Assembly (NCBI GenBank): GCA_036845225.1 | Contig: DAIUEJ010000005.1 | Span: 10,808-74,807 of the forward strand | Source: Candidatus Anoxymicrobiaceae bacterium | GTDB lineage: Bacteria > Actinomycetota > Geothermincolia > Fen-727 > Anoxymicrobiaceae | Length of the DNA stretch: 64,000 nucleotides | Direction of reading: 5' to 3' | Shown: piece after piece, positions 487-28,810 of the stretch | Layout: each line of letters starts with the position of its first letter | Numbering within the stretch: position 1 is the stretch's first letter | Translations under genes and position numbers: made by a program | The notes under the pieces: generated by a model | What the model was told of the DNA's origin: nothing | The model's input: only the letters and a program-made list of their open reading frames with translations | The model's database searches: none

Positions 487-2220
487 TTAGCGGCGGCGGG
501 TTGAGATGGGCATCCGCCAGTCGCGGCCGAACGCCCGGGGAGTGATCTTGACCCCGACGGGAGCCTGCCGCCGCTTGTACTCGTTGGCGTCGACCGTCGC
601 TATCACCCGTGAGACGAGTTCGTGGCTCATGCCTCTAGCCACTATCTCCTGAGCGCCCAGCCCTTGTTCGACGTACGCCTCCAGCACGGGGTCGAGCTCC
701 TCATAGGGAGGCAGTGAGTCGGTGTCGAGCTGGTCCGCCCGGAGCTCGGCGGTAGGCGGCCGCTCGATTATGAACGCCGGGATGACTTCCTTGCCCGCGC
801 GCTCGTTGATGTACTCGGCAACCTCGTAGACCTGTGTCTTCAAGAGGTCCTTGATCAGAGCGAAGCCTCCTGCCATGTCCCCGTACAGAGTGCAGTAGCC
901 CATCGACAGCTCGCTCTTGTTGCCGGTGGCCAGCACCAGCCAGCCGAACTGGTTGGATAACGCCATCAGGAGGTTGCCCCTGATCCGTGCCTGGAGGTTC
1001 TCGTAGGCGACCCCTTCGTCTTTCTCGCCCAGCTCAGGCGCCAGGTCCTCCACATAGCTGGTGTAGACCGATCCTATCGGCAGCACTATCAACTTCACCC
1101 CGAGGTTTTGCACGAGCTCCTCCGCCGCGCTGCCGCTCTCCCCCGCCGTGTACTTGGAGGGGAGGAAAACACATACCACGTTCTCCTTACCCAGCGCCTC
1201 TACGGCGAGCGCCGCGGTCAGCGCCGAGTCGATCCCGCCGGAGAGCCCGAGCACGACCTTCTTGAACCCGTTCTTGGCGACGTATTCATCCAGGCCCAGC
1301 ACCAGCGCCTCGAATATCTCTTCGGTGAGCGACATCTCCGCGACCGGCTCCACGCGCCCTGAATCAGGCCTCGCGGCCTCGAAGGTGGACGGCTTTTCCA
1401 GGACGCAGACCTCAACCTCTGAGTGAGGGCACTCCGCCCGGCTGTAGCGGAACCGCGGCTCCAGGAGGCGATTGCTCTTGAGGGGCTCGAGGTCGACCTC
1501 GCACACCAGCAGCTCTTCTTCAAACCTCCGGGCCGTCGCGATGAACCCCTGTTGAGGATGATAGACACAGGACCCGCCGTCGAAGACCAGCTCGTCCTGG
1601 GCGCCGACCATGTTGCAGTAAGCGATCACGACCGGCCCGTCCATCGACCTCGATGCGATCAGTTTCCTGCGGTACTCGTATTTTCCGCGGTTGAACGGGG
1701 ACGCCGATAGGTTGAGGATGATCTCGGCGCCTCCGCGCGCCACCTGCTCTTCCACCGGCCCGCCGGGGAACCAGATATCCTCACAGATGGTTATTCCCAC
1801 GCGCACCCCGGAGACTTCGATCACCACGTTGCGGTTGCCGGCGCCGAAGTACCTCTTCTCATCGAAGACGCCGTAGTTAGGGAGAAAAGTCTTCCTGTAG
1901 ACGCAGCGCAACTTTCCCCGGTTGATAACGGCCGCCGAGTTGAAGACGTCGTAGTCCGCCTCGGCGTAGCCCACCACCGCGATGGTGTCACCGATGCCGC
2001 TCGCGAGCTCGTTCATCGCGGCCATGCTGCTGCGGTTGAAATCGGTCTTGAGGAGGAGGTCCTCGGGAGGATACCCGGTCAGGCAAAGCTCCGGGAAGAG
2101 CACTATGTCCGCGCCGGCGGCCTTTGCCTCCTCGACGTACTCCATTATCTTGCTCGAGTTGCCCTCGAGATCTCCGACCGCGCTCTTGACCTGAGCGAGC
2201 GCAAGAACCAGTCCTGGCAC
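487..2220 (-). CDS. nadE: Glutamine-dependent NAD+ synthetase (N-terminal CN-hydrolase/nitrilase domain plus C-terminal NAD synthase domain)
   Basis: 577 aa. N-terminus has the carbon-nitrogen hydrolase pattern (LFPELCLTGYPPEDLL) and the C-terminus the NAD synthetase P-loop region (VVLGLSGGIDSAL). Confidence 0.85.
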   Translation of the reverse strand: MPGLVLALAQVKSAVGDLEGNSSKIMEYVEEAKAAGADIVLFPELCLTGYPPEDLLLKTDFNRSSMAAMNELASGIGDTIAVVGYAEADYDVFNSAAVINRGKLRCVYRKTFLPNYGVFDEKRYFGAGNRNVVIEVSGVRVGITICEDIWFPGGPVEEQVARGGAEIILNLSASPFNRGKYEYRRKLIASRSMDGPVVIAYCNMVGAQDELVFDGGSCVYHPQQGFIATARRFEEELLVCEVDLEPLKSNRLLEPRFRYSRAECPHSEVEVCVLEKPSTFEAARPDSGRVEPVAEMSLTEEIFEALVLGLDEYVAKNGFKKVVLGLSGGIDSALTAALAVEALGKENVVCVFLPSKYTAGESGSAAEELVQNLGVKLIVLPIGSVYTSYVEDLAPELGEKDEGVAYENLQARIRGNLLMALSNQFGWLVLATGNKSELSMGYCTLYGDMAGGFALIKDLLKTQVYEVAEYINERAGKEVIPAFIIERPPTAELRADQLDTDSLPPYEELDPVLEAYVEQGLGAQEIVARGMSHELVSRVIATVDANEYKRRQAPVGVKITPRAFGRDWRMPISTRRR

Positions 2221-2281
2221 CTTTCAACCTCCCTGCCGTGCCGCTTCAAAATAGCATACCACGACACGCCGGGAGGCACGC

Positions 2282-2620
2282 TCAGATGGCCCGGTCTCCG
2301 ACCTCTCCCGTCCTTACCCGTATCGCGTCGGCTACATCGGTGACGAATATCTTGCCGTCGCCGATCGCGCCGGTTCGCGCCTTCCTGACGATGATGTCGA
2401 TCATCTTCTCCAGGTCCTCGTCCATGACGACGACCTCGACCTTCACCTTTGGTATGAACCGGATAGTGTAGGCGTTGCCCCGCCATTGCTGCTCCAGGCC
2501 CTTCTGCTTGCCGTGGCCTTTCACCGCGGTGATGGTGACGCCCGGGTAACCGATGGTCTCGAGCCCGTCGATCACTGAATCCAGCTTGTTCGTTCTAACT
2601 ATCGCCTCGACCTTTTTCAT
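2282..2620 (-). CDS. glnK: Nitrogen regulatory protein P-II (GlnK/GlnB family)
   Basis: 112 aa: MKKVEAIVR...TGEVGDGKIFV, the typical PII fold sequence, located immediately downstream of amtB. Confidence 0.9.
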   Translation of the reverse strand: MKKVEAIVRTNKLDSVIDGLETIGYPGVTITAVKGHGKQKGLEQQWRGNAYTIRFIPKVKVEVVVMDEDLEKMIDIIVRKARTGAIGDGKIFVTDVADAIRVRTGEVGDRAI

Positions 2621-2638
2621 CAGTCCTCCACTATCGGC

Positions 2639-4195
2639 TCAGGCAATGTCGTCATAAAGGTCCGTGGTCTCGTCCGTGTATGCCGGGACTCCCATCTCTG
2701 CGGAGTCGAGGCCGTTCACCTCATCCGCGGGGGCCACCCTGATGCCCTGGATCTTATCCTGCACTTTGAAGAACGCATACGCGAGCGTGCACACGAACAC
2801 GATGCACGTCGCCGCGCCGATGAGCTGCACCAGGAACTGTCCATATCCCCCGTAGAGCAGGCCTCTGACGGTCCCTGACACACCGTTCCACCCGGCACCG
2901 TAGGTGCCGTCCGCGAAGATGCCCAGCGCGATGACTCCCCATAGTCCGTTGACGCCGTGGACCGCCACCGCGCCGACGGGGTCGTCGATCTTGAAGCGCC
3001 GCTCCAGTGTGGTCACCGCGACGCACACCAGCACGCCGGCGATGGCACCTATGATCGCGGCTTCCCAGCCGGACACGAAAGCGCACGGCGCGGTGATGGC
3101 CACGAGTCCCGCGAGGCACCCGTTGGCGCTCATGGACGGGTCCGGGAACCCCGTCTTCTTCCACATATACAGCATCGCCACTACGGCACCGAAACAAGAC
3201 GCGAGCAAGGTGTTGGTGGCGACCACCGCCAGCCTGAGGTCGCCGCCGTTCAGGGTGCTGGCGGCGTTGAACCCGAACCATCCGAACACCAGGATGATGG
3301 TCCCGACGATCGCTAGGGGGATGTTGTGCCCGGGTATCGCCCGCGGCGTGCCGTCTTTCTTGAACTTCCCGATGCGCGGTCCGAGCACGAGTATTCCCAT
3401 CAGGCCCGTCAGGCCGCCCACGGCGTGCACCACCGACGACCCCGCGAAATCGACGAAGCCGTGTCCGAGGTGAGCGTGCACACCGAGCTGCGACAGCCAG
3501 CCGCCGCCCCATACCCAGTTGCCGAAGATCGGGTACAGGATAGCGCCCATGAATAACCCGTATACGCAGAACGCGGAGAACTTCCAGCGCTCGGCCATCG
3601 CCCCGGTGGGAATGGTCGCCGCCGTGTCCATGAACACTACTTCAAACAGGAAGAACAGGAAGATCCCGGTATCGTATGCCGGGCCACCCAGGGCGAAGCC
3701 CTTGAACCCGAAGAGGCCCCATCCGCCGATACCCACCTCGCGCGTCATGATCGCGGTGCCGCCGAACATCTTGAGCGCGCCTACCCCTCCGAACATGATC
3801 CCGAACCCGACGAAGTAGAAAGCCAGTACGGCGATGCCGAATATCATGAAGTTGGTCATCATGACGTGGAGCGCGTTCTTCTTCTGGCAGAAGCCCGTCT
3901 CGAGCAGCGCGAACCCGGCCTGCATGAAGAAGACCAGGATGCCGCCGAGAAACACCCAGATGAAGTTGGTGGCGATCTTGTTGTGGCCGACGTCATCGAG
4001 CACGGCGTCCACGGGGCTGGCGCCCTTGTCGGCCGGAGCAGAGACATCGGTCCTGTTGCCGGTCTTTGTTCCGTTCGGGTCACCCGCCCTCGCGATGGAA
4101 CCGAGGCAGAACAGGGCCATAATGATAAGTGCGGCCACCAGCGTCGCCCTGTATAGCTTGTGGCGCCTGTCGCGCATGGTCGTCAAATCCGTCAC
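2639..4195 (-). CDS. amtB: Ammonium transporter (Amt family), forming an amtB-glnK operon
   Basis: 518 aa polytopic membrane protein with Amt signatures (FALLETGFCQKKNALHVMM, DFAGSSVVH) and a signal/TM N-terminus. Confidence 0.9.
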   Translation of the reverse strand: MTDLTTMRDRRHKLYRATLVAALIIMALFCLGSIARAGDPNGTKTGNRTDVSAPADKGASPVDAVLDDVGHNKIATNFIWVFLGGILVFFMQAGFALLETGFCQKKNALHVMMTNFMIFGIAVLAFYFVGFGIMFGGVGALKMFGGTAIMTREVGIGGWGLFGFKGFALGGPAYDTGIFLFFLFEVVFMDTAATIPTGAMAERWKFSAFCVYGLFMGAILYPIFGNWVWGGGWLSQLGVHAHLGHGFVDFAGSSVVHAVGGLTGLMGILVLGPRIGKFKKDGTPRAIPGHNIPLAIVGTIILVFGWFGFNAASTLNGGDLRLAVVATNTLLASCFGAVVAMLYMWKKTGFPDPSMSANGCLAGLVAITAPCAFVSGWEAAIIGAIAGVLVCVAVTTLERRFKIDDPVGAVAVHGVNGLWGVIALGIFADGTYGAGWNGVSGTVRGLLYGGYGQFLVQLIGAATCIVFVCTLAYAFFKVQDKIQGIRVAPADEVNGLDSAEMGVPAYTDETTDLYDDIA

Positions 4196-4246
4196 GCCCG
4201 TCTGACCCCCGTTCGCAGACCGTGTCTCATGAACTCAGGTTAGAAG

Positions 4247-4292
4247 GGCGATGTTTCGTGACGGTTTCACGAATGTAAAATGTAGGTAACAG
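4247..4292 (-). promoter_or_regulatory. Putative nitrogen-regulator (GlnR-type) operator upstream of amtB: GTTAC-n6-TTTAC-n6-GAAAC-n6-GAAAC, followed by ATCGCC
   Basis: Minus strand reads tGTTACctacatTTTACattcgtGAAACcgtcacGAAACATCGCC. The same GAAAC-n6-GAAACATCGCC core occurs upstream of glnA (37883-37917). Confidence 0.45.
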
Positions 4293-4306
4293 CCGAATGC
4301 GCCTCC

Positions 4307-4360
4307 GAGGTCAGGCCCCCGTGGTGCATTTTGACATCAGGCTCAGGACCGGTCAGGGAA
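4307..4360. repeat. Degenerate copy of the REP-like element (ggtcaggcccccgtggtgcattttga...gaccggtcagggaa)
   Basis: Aligns with 391-435 (ggtcaggcaccggtggtgcatttttga...gaccagggaa). Confidence 0.5.
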
Positions 4361-4423
4361 GAGGCGTTCCCGGTGGGTGCTTTCGGGCGCGTTGCTTCTC
4401 TACGGCGTCTGTGACGCCCATCA

Positions 4424-5242
4424 GTGCCTTCTCGAGTGCCGCCCCGTAGCCCGCGCCGACTGCTCCATGAACAGCCCCCTGCGAGCGCCCTCAGGGCGCG
4501 TGCTACGCGATGCGGGGTCAAGGGCTCCGGGGTCCGGCTCGCACTCGGCGCCCAGCAGTCTTCCCCAGTAATACGGGGTTGTGAGCTCTACTTCCGAGGG
4601 GATGCCGCCTTCGCCTCACCGGGCGTCTACGAATACCTGGAGCAGAACCACATCCTCTACGCCACCAGACTTCCCGCAAACCAGGTACTCTCCAGGGATA
4701 TAGAGCACCTCATGACCAGGCCGGTGGGAAGACCTCCCAAGAGACCAAGGGTTTTCTACCATGACTTCTCCTACCAGGCCACCTCCTGGAGCACGCCCAG
4801 GAGGGTGATTGCGAAGGTGGAGTGGCACGCAGGTGAGCTGTTCCCGAGGGTTGGCTTTATCGTGACCAACATGACCGCGAAAGCCAAGAACGTGGTGAGG
4901 TTCTACAACAAGCGCGGCAACTGCGAGCAGTGGATAAAGGAAGGGAAACGCACCCTTACCTGGACCAGGTTATCCTGCACCAGGTTCTCCTCCAACCAGG
5001 TGAGGCTCGCGCTGTTCGTCCTGGCGTACAACATGGGAAACTTCCTCCGCCGTTTCGCCCTTCCGAGTCAGGTCTCGCACTGGTCGCTATCCAGCATCCA
5101 GCTCAAGCTCATAAAGATTGGAGCAAAGGTGATGAGCCATTCGAGGAGGACGATCTTCCAGATGGCGGAGGTCGCCGTCCCTGAGGCGCTATTCGCCGCT
5201 CTCCTGGAGCGTATACGTTGCCTGGTCGCCGCGCCGACTTGA
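4424..5242 (+). pseudogene. IS1380-family DDE transposase, N-terminally truncated remnant (C-terminal ~215 aa only)
   Basis: Motifs RVIAKVEWHAGELFPRVGFIVTNM...FYNKRGNCEQWIKEGKRTLTWTRLSCTRFSSNQVRLALFVLAYNMGNFLRR match the IS1380-family C-terminus. The N-terminal ~60 residues of the ORF are non-homologous read-through, and no N-terminal transposase half is present. Confidence 0.7.
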
Positions 5243-5358
5243 TAGGCACAGAGGTTGTTCACATGAACGCAGAGATAACGGTCAATGGTCCTCAATCGTC
5301 ATCGAAGACGGGCTCGACAGGCAGGCGGTAACTTCGAGAAAGAGAGACGAGGGCGAGA

Positions 5359-5637
5359 TTGCGCCTCGGTAATCGGCTTCAAGGGGGTATAATGATGGCG
5401 TCGGCGGCTGGAAATGGGAAATGTCAGCTGAAAGTAATAGGCCGCTTGAAACCCCCCTTGTTTTCACCAGAAGAAACATGGGAGAAGATTGGGAATGTCG
5501 ACAACGTGGTTTTCCCTACCGGAGCAGTGGTTAGAAATGGCCGTGTCTATATTTACTATGGCGCTGCCGACAAGTTGATTGCCGCGAGATCTGTTGATCT
5601 GGCAGAGCTGTTGACCAAACTCAAGAGAAGCCCGTGA
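5359..5637 (+). pseudogene. Glycoside hydrolase family 130 (GH130), C-terminal fragment only
   Basis: NVVFPTGAVVRNGRVYIYYGAADKLIAARSVDLAELL matches the conserved GH130 C-terminus and is paralogous to the full GH130 gene at 8969-9910. Only ~90 aa are present, directly after the IS remnant. Confidence 0.6.
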
Positions 5638-5641
5638 GACC

Positions 5642-7921
5642 ATGAGCCCCCAACAGCAGAATAGATACTGGATAGTCTGTGTTTCTACCTTCCCGCCGCG
5701 ACAGTGCGGCATCGCCACCTTTACCACTGACCTTACCAATGCTGTTGACAAGATGTTCGAACCGTCGATTAGGTCAAAGATTATTGCGATGAATCGTACT
5801 GAAGTAAGTCATTATTCCTACCCTGACAAAGTAATATCCCAGATATGTCAACCCCGTGAAAAAGACTACGTTGATGCTGCCGACAAGCTCAACCGGCTCG
5901 AAAAGGTAAGACTTGTCAACATCCAACATGAATTCGGGATCTTCGGAGGGGAGAACGGTTCACACATACTTCTCTTTTTAGAAAAACTTCAGAAACCGCT
6001 TGTTGCCACATTACACACAGTTCTTCCCACTCCAGACGAAGGAATGCGCAACGTTGTTCAAGCTATCATGGAGTATTCAAAAGGAATAATCGTTATGACG
6101 CACTACTCAAAGAAGATTCTCGAAAGAGATTACGGGTTGGATCCTAATCGAATTCAAGTTATTCCTCATGGGATCCACCATGTTCCCTATAGAAATACCA
6201 AGAAAGCCAAGTCTGCACTTGGCTTTTCTGGCAAATTGATCCTTTCAACCATTGGATTCCTTAGCCCCGGCAAGGGGATCGAGTACGTGATCGAGGCCTT
6301 GCCGCCGGTAGTACGGAAGTTCCCTAATGTTCGATATCTCGTCGCCGGCATTAGCCATCCTCTTGTTGTGAAACAGGAAGGCGAAAGTTACCGTAATTCT
6401 CTCATAAAGAAAGTTTACGAACTCGGTTTGAGCGAATACGTTCTTTTCGACAACACCTATTATGATCTAAATGACCTTCTAGAGTTCCTATCGGCTACCG
6501 ATATCTATATATCTCCCTCCTTAGATCCAAACCAGACCGTCTCCGGCACTTTGTCTTACGCCCTTGGCAGCGGTCGTCCGGTAATATCCACGGCTTTTGC
6601 CCAGGCCAGAGAGGACATTACTGATGATGTAGGCGTATTAGTTGACTTTAAGAACCCGCAGGCTTTCAGTGATGCCATCATTGAATTGTTGGGCAATGAT
6701 CAGCTTCGTCTGCAAATGGGCAAGAGATCTTATCTACACACAAGACACATGACCTGGCAAAATGTTGCCCTTTCCTACGTGAAATACTTCTCTCAATTTG
6801 TGCCGGAGCTAACCCTGGCACAAAGGGAACTTCCACGCGCAAAGCTTACGCATCTGGCTAAATTGACTGACAACTTCGGCATTATTCAGTTTGCCGAGTT
6901 TGCCGAGCCGGATCTTTCCTCTGGATATACCTTGGACGATAATGCCCGGGCTTTGGTTGTTGCCGCGCTCGATTATGAACAACACAGAACCTCTTCTTCA
7001 CTAAGTCTCGTCTCCATCTACCTCGACTTTCTTTATCGGGTAGCCAAACCCGATGGTTATTTCGATAACTATGTCAATCCAAACCACACTATTGACGAAC
7101 AGAGGAATAGCCGTGAATACTCAGAAGATGCCAGCGCCAGGGGACTATATGCGCTTGCCGTGGTCTCAACTACCAAACAAATCCCCGGACGCTTGAGAAA
7201 AAAGGCCCATTACTTGTTTGAGCAGAGTTTCCGGAAAGACATTGCTTTCTCCTCACCTCGTGCTATCGCTTCTTATATCAAGGCCCTCGCAAGTTTGCTT
7301 TCGAGATGGGAGGATGCAAGAACGCTTGCTGCACTAAAACACAACTGTGAAAAACTCTTGGCTCTATACGAGAAGAATCACTCACAGGACTGGGAGTGGT
7401 TCGAGCCTTATCTGACGTATTCAAATGCTCTCATGCCAGAAGCTCTTCTACACGGATGCAGAATAACCGGTGCGAGAAAATATTTCGAAGTGTCTGAAAA
7501 AACCCTCAGCTTCTTGATTAAGCATACCTTCAATGACAGCATGTACATCCCCATAGGCCAAGACGGCTGGTTTGTAAGGGGAGAGACGAGACAGTATTTT
7601 GACCAACAGCCCGAGGATGTTGCTGCTACCGTAGTAGCTCTCAACGCGATGTTTCGGGTAACGAACGAGGAGCATTACAGGGAATTGGCATACAAAGCAT
7701 TCAACTGGTTCCTGGGAGATAATATGCTTGGGCAGGTTGTCTATGATCACACCACCGGAGGATGTCATGATGGGCTTGGGAAAAAGTCCATTAACTTGAA
7801 TCAGGGAGCTGAATCTACCATTTCTTGCCTTTTGGCCCGTTTTTCATTCGACTGCTCAAAGTCAACTAAAAATTCCCTAGTTACAAACAATCATCGTCTC
7901 CCAATCACCCGGTTAGCATAA
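5642..7921 (+). CDS. Bifunctional-architecture protein: N-terminal GT4 (group 1) glycosyltransferase plus C-terminal (alpha/alpha)6 six-hairpin glycosidase-like domain
   Basis: 759 aa. N-terminal WIVCVSTFPPRQCGIATFTTDL and the Glycos_transf_1 region (GKGIEYVIEAL...). The C-terminal half has repeated helical-hairpin signatures (DNARALVVAALD, GLYALAVV, NQGAES). Confidence 0.6.
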   Translation: MSPQQQNRYWIVCVSTFPPRQCGIATFTTDLTNAVDKMFEPSIRSKIIAMNRTEVSHYSYPDKVISQICQPREKDYVDAADKLNRLEKVRLVNIQHEFGIFGGENGSHILLFLEKLQKPLVATLHTVLPTPDEGMRNVVQAIMEYSKGIIVMTHYSKKILERDYGLDPNRIQVIPHGIHHVPYRNTKKAKSALGFSGKLILSTIGFLSPGKGIEYVIEALPPVVRKFPNVRYLVAGISHPLVVKQEGESYRNSLIKKVYELGLSEYVLFDNTYYDLNDLLEFLSATDIYISPSLDPNQTVSGTLSYALGSGRPVISTAFAQAREDITDDVGVLVDFKNPQAFSDAIIELLGNDQLRLQMGKRSYLHTRHMTWQNVALSYVKYFSQFVPELTLAQRELPRAKLTHLAKLTDNFGIIQFAEFAEPDLSSGYTLDDNARALVVAALDYEQHRTSSSLSLVSIYLDFLYRVAKPDGYFDNYVNPNHTIDEQRNSREYSEDASARGLYALAVVSTTKQIPGRLRKKAHYLFEQSFRKDIAFSSPRAIASYIKALASLLSRWEDARTLAALKHNCEKLLALYEKNHSQDWEWFEPYLTYSNALMPEALLHGCRITGARKYFEVSEKTLSFLIKHTFNDSMYIPIGQDGWFVRGETRQYFDQQPEDVAATVVALNAMFRVTNEEHYRELAYKAFNWFLGDNMLGQVVYDHTTGGCHDGLGKKSINLNQGAESTISCLLARFSFDCSKSTKNSLVTNNHRLPITRLA

Positions 7922-7931
7922 AGGGTTAGCT

Positions 7932-8966
7932 ATGCGCATTGCGATGCTCTCTCCGATTGCTTGGCGCACGCCGCCGCAACATTACGGCCCGTGGGAAAGC
8001 GTGGTCTCCCTTTTGACCGAGGGGCTGGTCTCGCGCGGCTATGATGTTACCCTCTTTGCGACCGGTGATTCGCAAACAAGCGGCAAGCTCCATGCCGTTT
8101 GCGCGCGGGGCTATGAAGAAGACCTCTCCATTATGCCAAAAGTATGGGAGGGCCTGCACATTTCGGAACTCTTCGAGCATGCTGAAGATTTCGATATTAT
8201 CCATAACAATTTTGACTTTCTACCTCTGACATACACCGGCCTTACCACCACCCCGGTCGTTACTACTATTCACGGCTTTTCATCGCCCGGGATTTTGCCG
8301 GTTTACAAGAAATACAACGGCAAGGTGTTCTATGTTTCCATCAGCGATGCCGACCGGTCGCCGGATCTGGACTATATCAAAACCATCCATCACGGCATAG
8401 ATATAAAGCAGTTTGATTTTCAGCCTGAACCGGACGATTATCTGCTCTTTTTCGGGCGCATTCACCATGACAAGGGTGCCAGAGAGGCCATTGAAATTGC
8501 CAGGGCTTGCAATAAAAAGCTGATATTGGCGGGAATCATCCAGGATGAAGCCTACTATCACCAGCACATCGAACCGCACCTGGACAACGACAATGCGGTT
8601 TATGTCGGCAGCACCGGGCCGGTTCAGCGCAACCGGCTGCTTGGCAAGGCATGCGCGCTTCTGCATCCCATAAATTTCAATGAGCCTTTCGGCCTGGCCG
8701 TTATCGAGTCCATGGCCTGCGGCACTCCTGTAATCGCCTTTAACAGGGGTAGCATGCCCGAACTTATAGAAAACGGCAAGAACGGTCTTCTCGTAAAAAC
8801 AGTGGATGAGGCAATAGGGGCTGTTGCACGCATAAAAGATATTGACCGGGTATGCTGCCGCCGCCGTGTTGAACAGCATTTCACGGTCGATCGTATGGTT
8901 GAAGAATATATTCAGGTCTATGAAACGGTTCTCGAAAAAACGAAAAGAGAGGACCACCGACACTGA
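7932..8966 (+). CDS. GT4 family glycosyltransferase (group 1)
   Basis: 344 aa: MRIAMLSPIAW...EPFGLAVIESMACGTPVIAFNRGSMPELIENGKNGLLV, the canonical GT4 C-terminal domain. Confidence 0.8.
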   Translation: MRIAMLSPIAWRTPPQHYGPWESVVSLLTEGLVSRGYDVTLFATGDSQTSGKLHAVCARGYEEDLSIMPKVWEGLHISELFEHAEDFDIIHNNFDFLPLTYTGLTTTPVVTTIHGFSSPGILPVYKKYNGKVFYVSISDADRSPDLDYIKTIHHGIDIKQFDFQPEPDDYLLFFGRIHHDKGAREAIEIARACNKKLILAGIIQDEAYYHQHIEPHLDNDNAVYVGSTGPVQRNRLLGKACALLHPINFNEPFGLAVIESMACGTPVIAFNRGSMPELIENGKNGLLVKTVDEAIGAVARIKDIDRVCCRRRVEQHFTVDRMVEEYIQVYETVLEKTKREDHRH

Positions 8967-8968
8967 CT

Positions 8969-9910
8969 ATGACTACTCAATATCCCATTATAAAACGTTA
9001 TAAAATAAATCCCATTCTCACAAAAGATGATGTCCCCTACCCTGTAGCCACGGTCCACAATGCCGGCATAGTCAGGCATGGCGGCCGCTACATTATGCTG
9101 TTCAGGTCGCACCGTTACAACGGACGCTCCATCATCGGCAGGGCCGACAGCGATGATGGTTTTTCCTTCACTGTCCATCCCAAACCCTTTCTCATACCTG
9201 CAAAGGACAACATGTTTGCAGAATATGAAGAGTTCGGAGTCGAGGACCTGAGAATCTGCCCGGTAGAGGACGACTACCTGCTTACCTACAGCGCGTATTC
9301 CCGTCACGGCGTTCGGACTGCCCTTGCGCGCACCAGAGATTTTGAAAAAGTTGAACGCATTGCGCTTATAACCCAGGCCGACCTTCGCAACGTCGTCATT
9401 TTCCCTGTAAAGTTCGGTGGCAGGTATGCGCGTCTTGACCGGCCACATTCCGAAATTTCACCCTGGTCTATCTGGATTTCCTATTCCCCCGACCTGGTTC
9501 ACTGGGGTGATTCACGGGTGATTATGAAGCCGGTTCCCTATCATTGGGATGGAATGAAAATCGGTCCCGGCGCACCGCCCTTCAAGACCGACAAGGGATG
9601 GCTGCATATTTACCATGGGGTCTTTATGACCATGGCTGGGGCGGTATATCGCCTTGGTGCGGCCCTGCATGACCTTAATGATCCGGCAGAAATCATCGGG
9701 GTTTCCGATCAGTGGATACTGCAGCCCGAGGATCCCTGGGAGGTAAGCGGCTATGTGCCCAATGTTGTTTTTAGCTGCGGCGCTGTTCCTGAAGACGACG
9801 GTACGGTAAAAATATACTGGGGCGGTGCTGATACGGTTATGTGTGCCGGTACGGCAGTGATTGATGACCTTGTACAATTATGTCTTACAAATACCAGGCC
9901 GGCGCTGTAA
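8969..9910 (+). CDS. GH130 family glycoside hydrolase / beta-mannoside phosphorylase-like
   Basis: 313 aa with a GH130 five-bladed propeller profile (ATVHNAGIV, LLTYSAYS, KGWLHIYHGV, NVVFSCGAV...IYWGGADTVMCAGTA). Confidence 0.8.
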   Translation: MTTQYPIIKRYKINPILTKDDVPYPVATVHNAGIVRHGGRYIMLFRSHRYNGRSIIGRADSDDGFSFTVHPKPFLIPAKDNMFAEYEEFGVEDLRICPVEDDYLLTYSAYSRHGVRTALARTRDFEKVERIALITQADLRNVVIFPVKFGGRYARLDRPHSEISPWSIWISYSPDLVHWGDSRVIMKPVPYHWDGMKIGPGAPPFKTDKGWLHIYHGVFMTMAGAVYRLGAALHDLNDPAEIIGVSDQWILQPEDPWEVSGYVPNVVFSCGAVPEDDGTVKIYWGGADTVMCAGTAVIDDLVQLCLTNTRPAL

Positions 9911-10283
9911 AAAAGGTTAAGAGGACCTTGCCAAGAGCAACCTTCTTGGCGTACTCGCTCCGCTCCCTCTCGAGCTCGTCAGGCCCGAGGAGCGTCATGC
10001 ACCAGGCACCCTCGCGATCGGAGCCATCACAAGCAGCGTTGTCGCAACGATCGCGATCGCATAGTGTGCATTCTCACGTAACTGAACACTGATTCTCATC
10101 TTGCTTGAGCACTTCCGGAATTAGAGGATTCGAACCCTCTCCTGTCGTTTTACCCCGATCAATCACTTCGAGGCCAAGACCCTTGTTGCATTTCGATCTC
10201 ATGCTGAAAGAGCCCAGCGGTAAGGCATAACGCTGGACTAGATTGCGCATCCAGTCTTGAAAGTGAATATCGACTGGGGCTCC

Positions 10284-10334
10284 CCCCGGCCCCCCTGAGT
10301 CGAGGGTTCGAATCCCTCCAGCTCCACCACCAAA
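10284..10334 (+). repeat. Partial, inverted copy of the tRNA-Ala 3' half (acceptor/T-arm plus CCA plus 4 nt), forming a 39-bp perfect inverted repeat with the adjacent tRNA-Ala gene
   Basis: 10296-10334 gagtcgagggttcgaatccctccagctccaccaccaaat is the exact reverse complement of 10363-10400. The upstream ggggctcc mimics a tRNA 5' end, but no D-arm or anticodon arm is present. Confidence 0.55.
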
Positions 10335-10365
10335 TATGAAGGGTGGTCAGGAAGAGTGAAGGATT

Positions 10366-10443
10366 TGGTGGTGGAGCTGGAGGGATTCGAACCCTCGACT
10401 TCTACCCTGCCAAGGTAGCGCTCTCCCCCTGAGCTACAGCCCC
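10366..10443 (-). tRNA. tRNA-Ala (anticodon GGC), G3:U70 present, CCA encoded
   Basis: Minus strand reads GGGGCUGUAGCUCAGGGGGAGAGCGCUACCUUGGCAGGGUAGAAGUCGAGGGUUCGAAUCCCUCCAGCUCCACCA. Clean cloverleaf with anticodon loop UUGGCAG. Confidence 0.85.
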
Positions 10444-10494
10444 ACACGGGTGCAAAAGATGCGAGTGTAATGATAACCGTACCTCAGGAGCCGC

Positions 10495-10896
10495 TCAAGA
10501 GCGCCCGGCGGCGCCCGGCTCGCCGGCGTGCTCGTCCCACTCGACTATCGGAACATTGCCCCAGAGGCGCTCGAGGTTGTAGAACTCGCGGTCTTCGTCG
10601 AGGAATATGTGGACGACCACGTCGATATAGTCAAGGAGGATCCAGCGACCGAAGCGTACCCCTTCTCGGCGGACCGGCTTCACTCCGCTCTCCCTCAGCT
10701 CCTCCTCCACCGCGTCCTGAAGTCGCTTGACCTGTCGCTCGTTCCGGCCGCTCGCGATGACGAAGTAGTCCGTGAGCCCGAGCGTATCCCTCATGTCCAT
10801 GATGCGGACGTCGGTTGCTTTCTTGTCGTCTGCCGCCCTCGCGGCAGCGATTGCCAACTGCTCAGCTGTCAGCAACTGATCTGCTCCAGCCTTCAA
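10495..10896 (-). CDS. rsfS: Ribosomal silencing factor RsfS (Iojap family)
   Basis: 133 aa; DYFVIASGRNERQVKRL...WILLDYIDVVVHIF is the RsfS signature. Confidence 0.85.
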   Translation of the reverse strand: MKAGADQLLTAEQLAIAAARAADDKKATDVRIMDMRDTLGLTDYFVIASGRNERQVKRLQDAVEEELRESGVKPVRREGVRFGRWILLDYIDVVVHIFLDEDREFYNLERLWGNVPIVEWDEHAGEPGAAGRS

Positions 10897-28689: not shown

Positions 28690-28810
28690 CAAGATCTTCT
28701 CCCATCCGGACTGTTACCGTCGGCCCCGGAATTTCGCCGGGTCAGCTCTTTCGAGCTCGCGGGCTTTACCGCCGGTCGGGGATTTCACCCTGTCCCGAAG
28801 ACTATATATT
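28690..28810 (-). promoter_or_regulatory. FMN riboswitch (RFN element) in the rib operon leader
   Basis: Minus strand reads CUUCGGGACAGGGUGAAAUCCCCGACCGGCGGUAAAGCCCGCGAGC...GGCGAAAUUCCGGGGCCGACGGUAACAGUCCGGAUGGGAGAAG, matching the conserved RFN cores (GGGUGAAAUUCCC, GACCGGCGGUA, AGUCCGGAUGGGAGA). Confidence 0.85.

Follow-up and report, generated by a model that had tools for sequence, protein, structure and literature searches.

We focused on a tRNA-Ala(GGC) gene in a 64,000-nucleotide stretch of DNA from Candidatus Anoxymicrobiaceae bacterium (contig DAIUEJ010000005.1; the whole stretch is referred to as the window here), next to which lies an inverted copy of the gene's own 3′ half. The tRNA gene occupies positions 10369 to 10443 of the minus strand and encodes its CCA end; it was called by ARAGORN, scores 67.9 bits with the Rfam tRNA model, and is predicted to fold into a clean cloverleaf of -31.1 kcal/mol. 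To its right, also on the minus strand, lie rsfS, the gene of the ribosomal silencing factor (10495 to 10896, PF02410), a LytR-CpsA-Psr gene, nadD, and pheST, while its left side holds a 6-kb low-GC island and then amt. A promoter scan found a promoter-like site for the tRNA gene on the minus strand at 10470 to 10498 (TTGAGC, 17 nt, TATCAT), where it overlaps the rsfS stop codon.

A repeat search of the window revealed a perfect inverted repeat, whose arms at 10298 to 10335 and 10363 to 10400 are each 38 nt long, 100% complementary, and separated by a central loop of 27 nt (10336 to 10362). The right arm, read on the minus strand, comprises tRNA positions 44 to 76 and 6 trailer nucleotides (CCAAAT). 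Its tRNA part is the 3′ half of tRNA-Ala (10369 to 10400), namely, the variable loop, the T-arm, the 3′ acceptor strand, the discriminator A, and CCA. The left arm is accordingly an inverted partial copy, a fragment, of the tRNA 3′ half and trailer on the plus strand. An initial annotation of this DNA had rightly called the repeat perfect and inverted and had placed the T-arm, acceptor strand, and CCA in the duplicated unit, but its figures of 39 bp, 28 nt of spacer, and 4 downstream nucleotides give way to 38, 27, and 6. A 25-mer taken from the arm has exactly two occurrences in the window and none in 100 shuffles, and the hairpin formed by the arms is predicted at -83 to -89 kcal/mol with a z-score of -9.5 to -9.8. 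Together, the 25-mer count and the z-score exclude a chance origin, and the inverted repeat is real.

Directly beside the copy, on the plus strand at 10276 to 10297, alignments delimit a G/C-rich module, GGGGCTCCCCCCGGCCCCCCTG (CAGGGGGGCCGGGGGGAGCCCC on the tRNA strand), which is not obviously derived from the tRNA. Two short matches to other parts of the tRNA were noted, GGGGCT to its 5′ end and CCCCCTGAG to the reverse complement of the D-loop sequence CTCAGGGGG. We considered a whole inverted tRNA pseudogene and discarded it, as these matches, though suggestive, are too short for a test and did not turn up in the related loci L035 or L036 (see below). A dispersed repeat, REP, or miniature inverted-repeat transposable element (MITE) was rejected as well: the arm and the module are single-copy in the window, both are confined to this locus among all fetched loci, and a metagenome pattern scan returned this locus plus chance matches and nothing else.

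To place the repeat in an evolutionary context, we used RsfS homologues (PF02410) as a synteny anchor for fetching orthologous loci, and added further loci from a look-up of exact protein matches and from a DNA pattern scan of metagenomes; an RsfS-based scan of genome contigs contributed two loci. The homologues carry names of Candidatus Geothermincolia or Actinomycetota metagenome-assembled genomes (MAGs), and gene order in the relatives is rsfS, tRNA-Ala, sometimes a flavin reductase gene, then amt and glnK. The arrangement of tRNA-Ala, spacer, and inverted copy recurs in contigs L001 and L002 (from ENA, assembled with MEGAHIT) and L006, L007, and L021 (from JGI), which are 98.9 to 99.6% identical to the window. 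It is also found in the more distant JGI contig L011 (71 to 78% DNA identity), with a copy of 25 nt followed by the G/C module, and in the ENA scaffold L036 (27 nt; RsfS 75% identical) and the NCBI MAGs L035 (25 nt; 71%) and L003 (17 nt; 73%). The orthologous copies in L006, L001, L011, L036, L035, and L003 span 17 to 34 nt; the window's exact 38-bp version with its spacer was not found in a second assembly. In L027 to L029 (RsfS 82%), a decayed copy lies ∼146 nt downstream of the tRNA, reading GGCTCCCCCC...CCCCCCTG...TTCTATCCCTCCAGTTCC as its reverse complement and amounting to a 14-nt trace in L027, and no inverted copy is present in L025 (87%), L033/L034 (68%), or L038 (73%). Comparison with homologous loci, which the initial annotation had proposed as a check, finds the inverted copy in close and distant relatives alike. 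Since the layout recurs in at least nine contigs that differ in sample, assembler, and lineage, the architecture is not an assembly artefact, and the annotation's suggestion of a palindromic one falls. One of these contigs, L002, has a T54-to-G change in its tRNA-Ala (positions 2985 to 2995, GGGGTCGAA) that sets it apart from the otherwise identical L006, L007, and L021 and is either a rare variant or a sequencing error. The promoter-like site of the tRNA gene in L003 has hexamers and spacing identical to those of the window.

Aligning seven lineages on the tRNA strand (the window sequence itself enters as W), and scoring the helix that the tRNA 3′ half forms with the inverted copy, we found that 89.3% of the cells at arm positions pair, compared with 33 to 47% when the partner was slid by one to three columns; the observed percentage was reached in 6 of 500 shuffles. 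Two double changes are visible, one at a variable-loop position, A:U to G:C in L036, and one at T-loop position 57, G:C to A:U in L036 and L003. This shows that the arms evolve in concert and that each copy tracks its own tRNA. The two ends of the copy behave differently. Its outer end, (A/G)GTCGAGGG adjoining CAGGGGGGCC and the G-rich module, is constant in five of the seven lineages, the exceptions being L035, where it lies 2 nt further in, and L003, where the match begins at position 52. The inner end varies, at tRNA positions 68 to 69 in L011, L036, L035, and L003, 76 in L001, 77 in L006, and 81 in W. Copies are accordingly 17 to 38 nt long, with 27 to 35 nt separating the two arms.

The center of the palindrome is a local mutation hot spot. 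Across 12.7 kb shared with the 99.6% identical strain L006, 21 of 56 differences fall within the 39 nt between the two CCA ends (10330 to 10368), compared with 0.27% per nucleotide elsewhere, so that the density of differences in the center is ∼200 times that around it. In the comparison with L001, 52 of 90 differences lie in the spacer and copy. Homology between the spacers runs in forward orientation, and most of their differences are indels, accompanied by substitutions, as fits an unstable palindrome center. Inversion of the spacer between strains, a possible product of template switching, was rejected because forward alignments of the spacers were better than reverse-complemented ones. 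Read on the tRNA strand, the stretch of 39 nt is 38% C and 8% G, and spacers of repeat-bearing lineages are in general C-rich and G-poor (4 to 15% G), whereas those of L027, L033, and L038 are not G-poor. The tRNA-proximal trailer of the window resembles that of L025, and both encode ...ACCACCA, a CCACCA end. We also observed that the trailers of W, L001, L002, L011, L025, L030, L035, L036, and L003 are G-poor and C-rich and contain CTCCACCA-like repeats.

The G/C module, like the copy it adjoins, is shared among lineages. Its pattern CAGGGGGGCCGGGGG(A/G)AG is conserved next to the copy in L001, L011, and L036, and it forms GC hairpins in L001 (GGGGGGA-TAC-TCCCCCC) and L011 (GGGGGAA-TCC-TTCCCCC) that differ by a compensatory change.

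On the left, the locus borders the low-GC island (∼4200 to 10110; GC content of 46 to 53%, compared with ∼63%), which separates amt from the tRNA-proximal block. Within it are a truncated DDE transposase gene (DDE_Tnp_1_4; 4424 to 5242), a C-terminal GH130 fragment (5359 to 5637) that repeats part of a complete GH130 gene (8969 to 9910), and two GT4 glycosyltransferase genes (5642 to 7921 and 7932 to 8966). The island is absent from L011, L025, L027, and L035, and window positions 4072 to 10280 shrink to ∼500 nt in L011; the L036 contig shows no island sequence as far as it reaches, ∼95 nt past the inverted copy, which it retains. Because island-free relatives keep both the copy and the order of rsfS, tRNA-Ala, and amt, the island is a later insertion, and because the copy lies 27 to 35 nt from the tRNA whether or not a genome has an island, it is the older of the two. 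The repeat is indeed near the edge of the island, as the initial annotation remarked, but it lies ∼170 nt outside, in a block that island-free relatives also possess.

Apart from the inverted copy, the tRNA 3′ flank contains direct partial copies of the same tRNA half. In the window, a decayed one lies on the minus strand at 10114 to 10146 (repeat search), and its 14-nt T-arm core (10126 to 10139) marks the end of the conserved tRNA-proximal block; its orientation is that of an old att-type duplication or integration scar. Well-preserved direct copies occupy the equivalent position in L035 (∼3150 to 3180) and L003 (∼4655 to 4696). Direct copies of this kind sit 170 to 260 nt downstream of tRNA-Ala, and those of the window and L011 are decayed. 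In L021, homology with the window starts at window position 10118; beyond this point lies an insertion sequence (IS), an IS4-like element that abuts the direct remnant and has its transposase at 1420 to 3006. The 3′ flank of tRNA-Ala is thus a variable hot spot of integration and insertion. In L035 (3512 to 4318, minus strand) and L003 (4916 to 5722, minus strand), a gene for a 268-amino-acid Y1_Tnp transposase (IS200-like, possibly REP-associated) adjoins tRNA-Ala; both loci also have an inverted repeat, CCGCAGGTTTGAAT ... ATTCAAACCTGCGG, around an AT-rich stretch of ∼150 nt, and L035 contains GGGGTCACCACGCAACGCGCACC three times.

To explain this arrangement, we favor, with somewhat better than even confidence, a tRNA-anchored quasi-palindrome whose arms are kept matched by template switching or gene conversion. 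An ancestor in a Geothermincolia-like actinobacterial lineage would have gained the inverted partial copy of the tRNA-Ala(GGC) 3′ half ∼30 nt downstream of the gene and beside the G/C hairpin module, likely by a short-range fold-back or template-switch duplication. From then on, one arm, being the tRNA, would have been under strong purifying selection, and the other would have been corrected to it repeatedly by intramolecular template switching or gene conversion, so that the copy could persist and follow lineage-specific tRNA variants without a function of its own. In the window strain, correction may have run through the acceptor strand, the CCA end, and the 6 trailer bases, which would have produced the perfect 38-bp repeat. 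Growth and erosion at the palindrome center would give the variable inner end, and an unstable center would concentrate indels and substitutions in the spacer. A selected arm, an arm that follows it, a fixed outer and a variable inner boundary, and an unstable center are what a quasipalindrome model predicts, and the orthologous loci show a short spacer and arms that change in concert, imperfect in some lineages and perfect in others. In a published model, template switching preferentially turns imperfect inverted repeats into perfect ones and in this way conserves them over evolutionary time (PMC5941160); template switching also homogenizes the arms of inverted repeats (PMC8604942). The plus-strand copy is, on this account, a gene fragment and not a gene.

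Several points weigh against this explanation. The mechanism itself, template switching, is inferred from the pattern. The covariation amounts to two positions and probably reflects one or two events. Correction of the arms cannot explain why the non-tRNA G/C module is conserved in L011, L036, and L001, nor does it account for the narrow gap of 27 to 35 nt and the constantly G-poor loop; together, the module, the gap, and the loop hint at selection on a structure. As for such a structure, a terminator would lack its U-tract here, formation of the hairpin would unfold the tRNA, and the closest outgroups argue against an essential role, the copy being lost in L025 and decaying in L027.

Selection on an RNA hairpin encoded on the tRNA strand is the alternative that fares best, although we regard it as a tentative possibility well behind the corrected quasi-palindrome. 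It holds that the trailer is a built-in antisense to the tRNA 3′ half, with a C-rich loop, that the G-rich GC hairpin comes next, and that this structure terminates, pauses, or processes tRNA-Ala transcripts; Rho might load on the C-rich loop or RNase III act on the long duplex, and the yield of mature tRNA-Ala(GGC) may be tuned in this way. Under the favored quasi-palindrome, too, any role of the structure would be expected on the tRNA strand, where a read-through trailer is predicted to fold back on the tRNA 3′ half with the GC hairpin next in line. Such folds would mark the 3′ end of the tRNA unit or insulate it from the downstream amt operon or, in the window, from the island. The complementarity of the arms in seven lineages, with its two double changes, is consistent with this proposal, as are the steady gap, the G-poor, C-rich loops confined to repeat-bearing lineages, and the conserved non-tRNA hairpin next to the copy with its compensatory change (GGGGGGA/TCCCCCC versus GGGGGAA/TTCCCCC). 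Predicted stability points the same way: tRNA plus trailer reach a minimum free energy of -89.4 kcal/mol as a 38-bp hairpin, far below the cloverleaf. L038 and the unrelated L037, which both lack the inverted copy, have a strong, independent hairpin of their own directly after the tRNA. Concerted evolution, on the other hand, would give the same covariation without selection, and tRNA maturation should suffer from a 38-bp duplex that takes up half of the tRNA. A scan of the minus strand from 9700 to 10700 found no terminator-like site, and no U-tract follows the arm (CAGGGGGGCC...). Where the copy has been lost (L025) or has decayed (L027), we saw no obvious replacement hairpin.

Less likely still is a scar of site-specific recombination at the island edge: either a partial tRNA copy made by an integrase (attR-like) would have undergone inversion afterwards, or the palindromic TTCGAA of the T-loop would have let an element integrate in the reverse direction. 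The initial annotation had proposed a rearrangement at an old att site, and the part of this proposal that stands is the variable 3′ flank, with the island in the window, the IS in L021, and direct copies or remnants in the window, L035, and L003. Moreover, partial tRNA genes mostly stem from element integration, and one pair of full and partial genes on opposite strands has been described after an inversion (PMC9897764). The inverted copy itself does not resemble an att fragment. Only the separate remnant at 10126 to 10139 is in direct orientation, and the copy, which predates the island, is present at empty sites: island-free L011 has it, and so does L036, whose contig shows no island sequence. 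Pfam models identified no integrase among the island open reading frames (ORFs) or the relatives' neighboring ORFs, in which the DDE fragment, GT4, GH130, and Y1_Tnp were found. No partner copy of the repeat was found at the far (left) end of the island, and the island ends showed no att-like repeats. A scan of viral contigs with the tRNA 3′ end, made for a phage attP, returned a single hit, an unrelated tRNA-Ala of low GC content whose terminator is normal. Finally, if two att sites had recombined by inversion, the tRNA would not have stayed intact with the copy right beside it. With no partner repeat, no integrase, and the copy present without the island, we rejected the inverted copy as the att junction of this island.

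A plus-strand gene for an alanine mini-tRNA, or minihelix, seems more doubtful again. GGGGCT sits 16 nt upstream of the copy on the plus strand, so that a hypothetical 54-nt unit can be drawn at 10276 to 10329, whose parts are a 6-bp acceptor stem including G3:U70, a C-rich linker of 19 nt, the T-arm, and ACCA; a 6-bp acceptor plus T-arm can thus be drawn as the initial annotation described. Processed by RNase P and charged by AlaRS, which charges G3:U70 minihelices, such an RNA would be used outside the ribosome. GGGGCU is paired with AGCUCC in W and in contigs of the L002 type, where the T-arm and ACCA are intact; in L001, GGGGAU pairs with AUCUCC through an apparent double change from C5:G68 to A5:U68; and the Rfam tmRNA model aligns 10276 to 10329 at a subthreshold 31.1 bits. 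The comparison of lineages does not bear out a gene. Acceptor strand and CCA occur together with a canonical T-loop in W and the L002-type contigs, and L001 has the acceptor strand and CCA alone, its T-loop being altered (TTCCGAAT), as is that of L035 (TTCTGCAT); L011, L036, L035, and L003 lack the acceptor 3′ strand and CCA altogether. Across the seven lineages, 61.0% of the cells pair, compared with 59.2% in shuffles, 125 of 500 of which reach 61.0%, and the covariation score does not differ from that of the shuffles. Pair 7:66 is mismatched, the fold predicted for 10278 to 10329 (52 nt, the unit minus its first two Gs) does not take the minihelix form (z-score of -1.2), the putative acceptor strand of L001 lies inside a stronger 7-bp GC hairpin, and a scan of the plus strand from 9700 to 10700 found no σ70-like promoter. 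The real tRNA reaches 41.9 bits in the same tmRNA model, for which 31.1 bits is below the gathering score. A narrower version, to which we give slightly less credence still, would restrict the unit to the subclade of W, the L002-type contigs, and L001, where the copy might have been extended to a full acceptor/T-arm/ACCA unit and expressed as an alanine mini-tRNA by way of RNase P and AlaRS, with a use off the ribosome, e.g., in cell-envelope chemistry; the unit has a LytR-CpsA-Psr gene and the glycosyltransferase island as neighbors.

The remaining candidates, a palindromic assembly chimera (palindromes can form at contig joins, and L001 and L030 end near the repeat) and part of the permuted tmRNA gene that ARAGORN reports at 9904 to 10461 on the minus strand (tag ENAHYAIAIVATTLLVMAPIARVPGA), are highly improbable given the recurrence of the architecture in independent contigs, tmRNA scores far below the gathering score of 47 bits (31.1 for RF00023 and 31.0 to 31.1 for the permuted model RF04321), an atypical tag end (...ARVPGA), and a tmRNA region that is not conserved in L011 and is interrupted by the IS in L021. 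We thus rejected a tmRNA, standard or permuted, and the ARAGORN call appears to be a false positive built from tRNA-Ala, the inverted copy, and the T-arm remnant.

If the corrected quasi-palindrome is the right explanation, this locus would be a clean natural case of a conserved gene serving as the fixed arm of a palindrome: the tRNA would preserve an inverted fragment that has no other use, over lineages with as little as 71 to 75% identity in RsfS. It would bear on models of inverted-repeat evolution and also on metagenome assembly, where contigs break near the repeat: L001 (end at 6735) and L030 (end at 4952) stop within tens of bases of the region of tRNA and inverted copy, and the repeat, or strain variation at the repeat, may be what breaks short-read assemblies there. 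It bears on annotation as well, given the mistaken permuted-tmRNA call by ARAGORN and the ease with which fragments of tRNAs are taken for genes. Were the hairpin functional, a tRNA transcription unit would be ended or regulated in an unusual manner, by a downstream hairpin that has the 3′ half of the tRNA as one of its arms. A minihelix would be of much greater interest, but the comparison of lineages speaks against it.

Two further features were noted at some distance from the repeat. In the island-free contig L011, the region 5′ of amt (4040 to 4115) contains repeated TTCCACTTTT motifs and an inverted AAAAGTGGAA, which may be candidate regulator-binding sites for the amt-glnK operon. The window also contains an FMN riboswitch (RFN element) at 28690 to 28806 on the minus strand, which scores 110.6 bits against a gathering score of 66.2.

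A literature search found no description of a tRNA gene whose 3′ half recurs downstream in inverted orientation. The structure is unusual but explicable, since tRNA fragments and quasipalindromes are both known phenomena, and each of several known systems shares some of its features. Intrinsic terminators downstream of tRNA genes resemble it in the very stable hairpin that starts at the 3′ end of the tRNA unit, and L037 and L038 have a strong, independent hairpin at that place; here, in contrast, the 5′ arm is the tRNA itself, the loop measures 27 to 35 nt, and there is no U-tract. The alanine minihelix, the tRNA-like domain of tmRNA, the t-elements of plant mitochondria, and mascRNA are tRNA-like RNAs made from an acceptor stem and T-arm. 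The window copy can be drawn in the same form, with a G3:U70 acceptor stem, T-arm, and ACCA, and it gives the subthreshold match to the tmRNA model. It differs from them in that acceptor strand and CCA are not conserved, in the absence of covariation and of a promoter in the scanned region, in the 19-nt C-rich insert between acceptor strand and T-stem, and in the 7:66 mismatch.

Partial tRNA copies made at att sites (PMC9897764) likewise consist of the 3′ portion with the T-arm and acceptor strand and occur where a tRNA flanks a variable island, and this locus contains true direct copies of that kind (10126 to 10139, L035, and L003). Unlike those, the copy discussed here is inverted, lies 27 nt from the intact gene and not at the far end of an element, has no integrase, and is found in island-free genomes. 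Template-switch quasipalindromes (Ripley model; PMC5941160, PMC8604942, and PMC7202029) share with it two arms, a short spacer (<70 nt), concerted change of the arms, which are imperfect in relatives and perfect here, an inner boundary that grows and erodes, and a local mutation hot spot. The differences are that the arms are 38 bp long here compared with <20 bp in the Escherichia coli studies, that the repeat persists across lineages as diverged as those above, and that one arm is half of a functional tRNA gene, a fixed anchor. A tRNA gene, in other words, is an unusually durable anchor for a palindrome.

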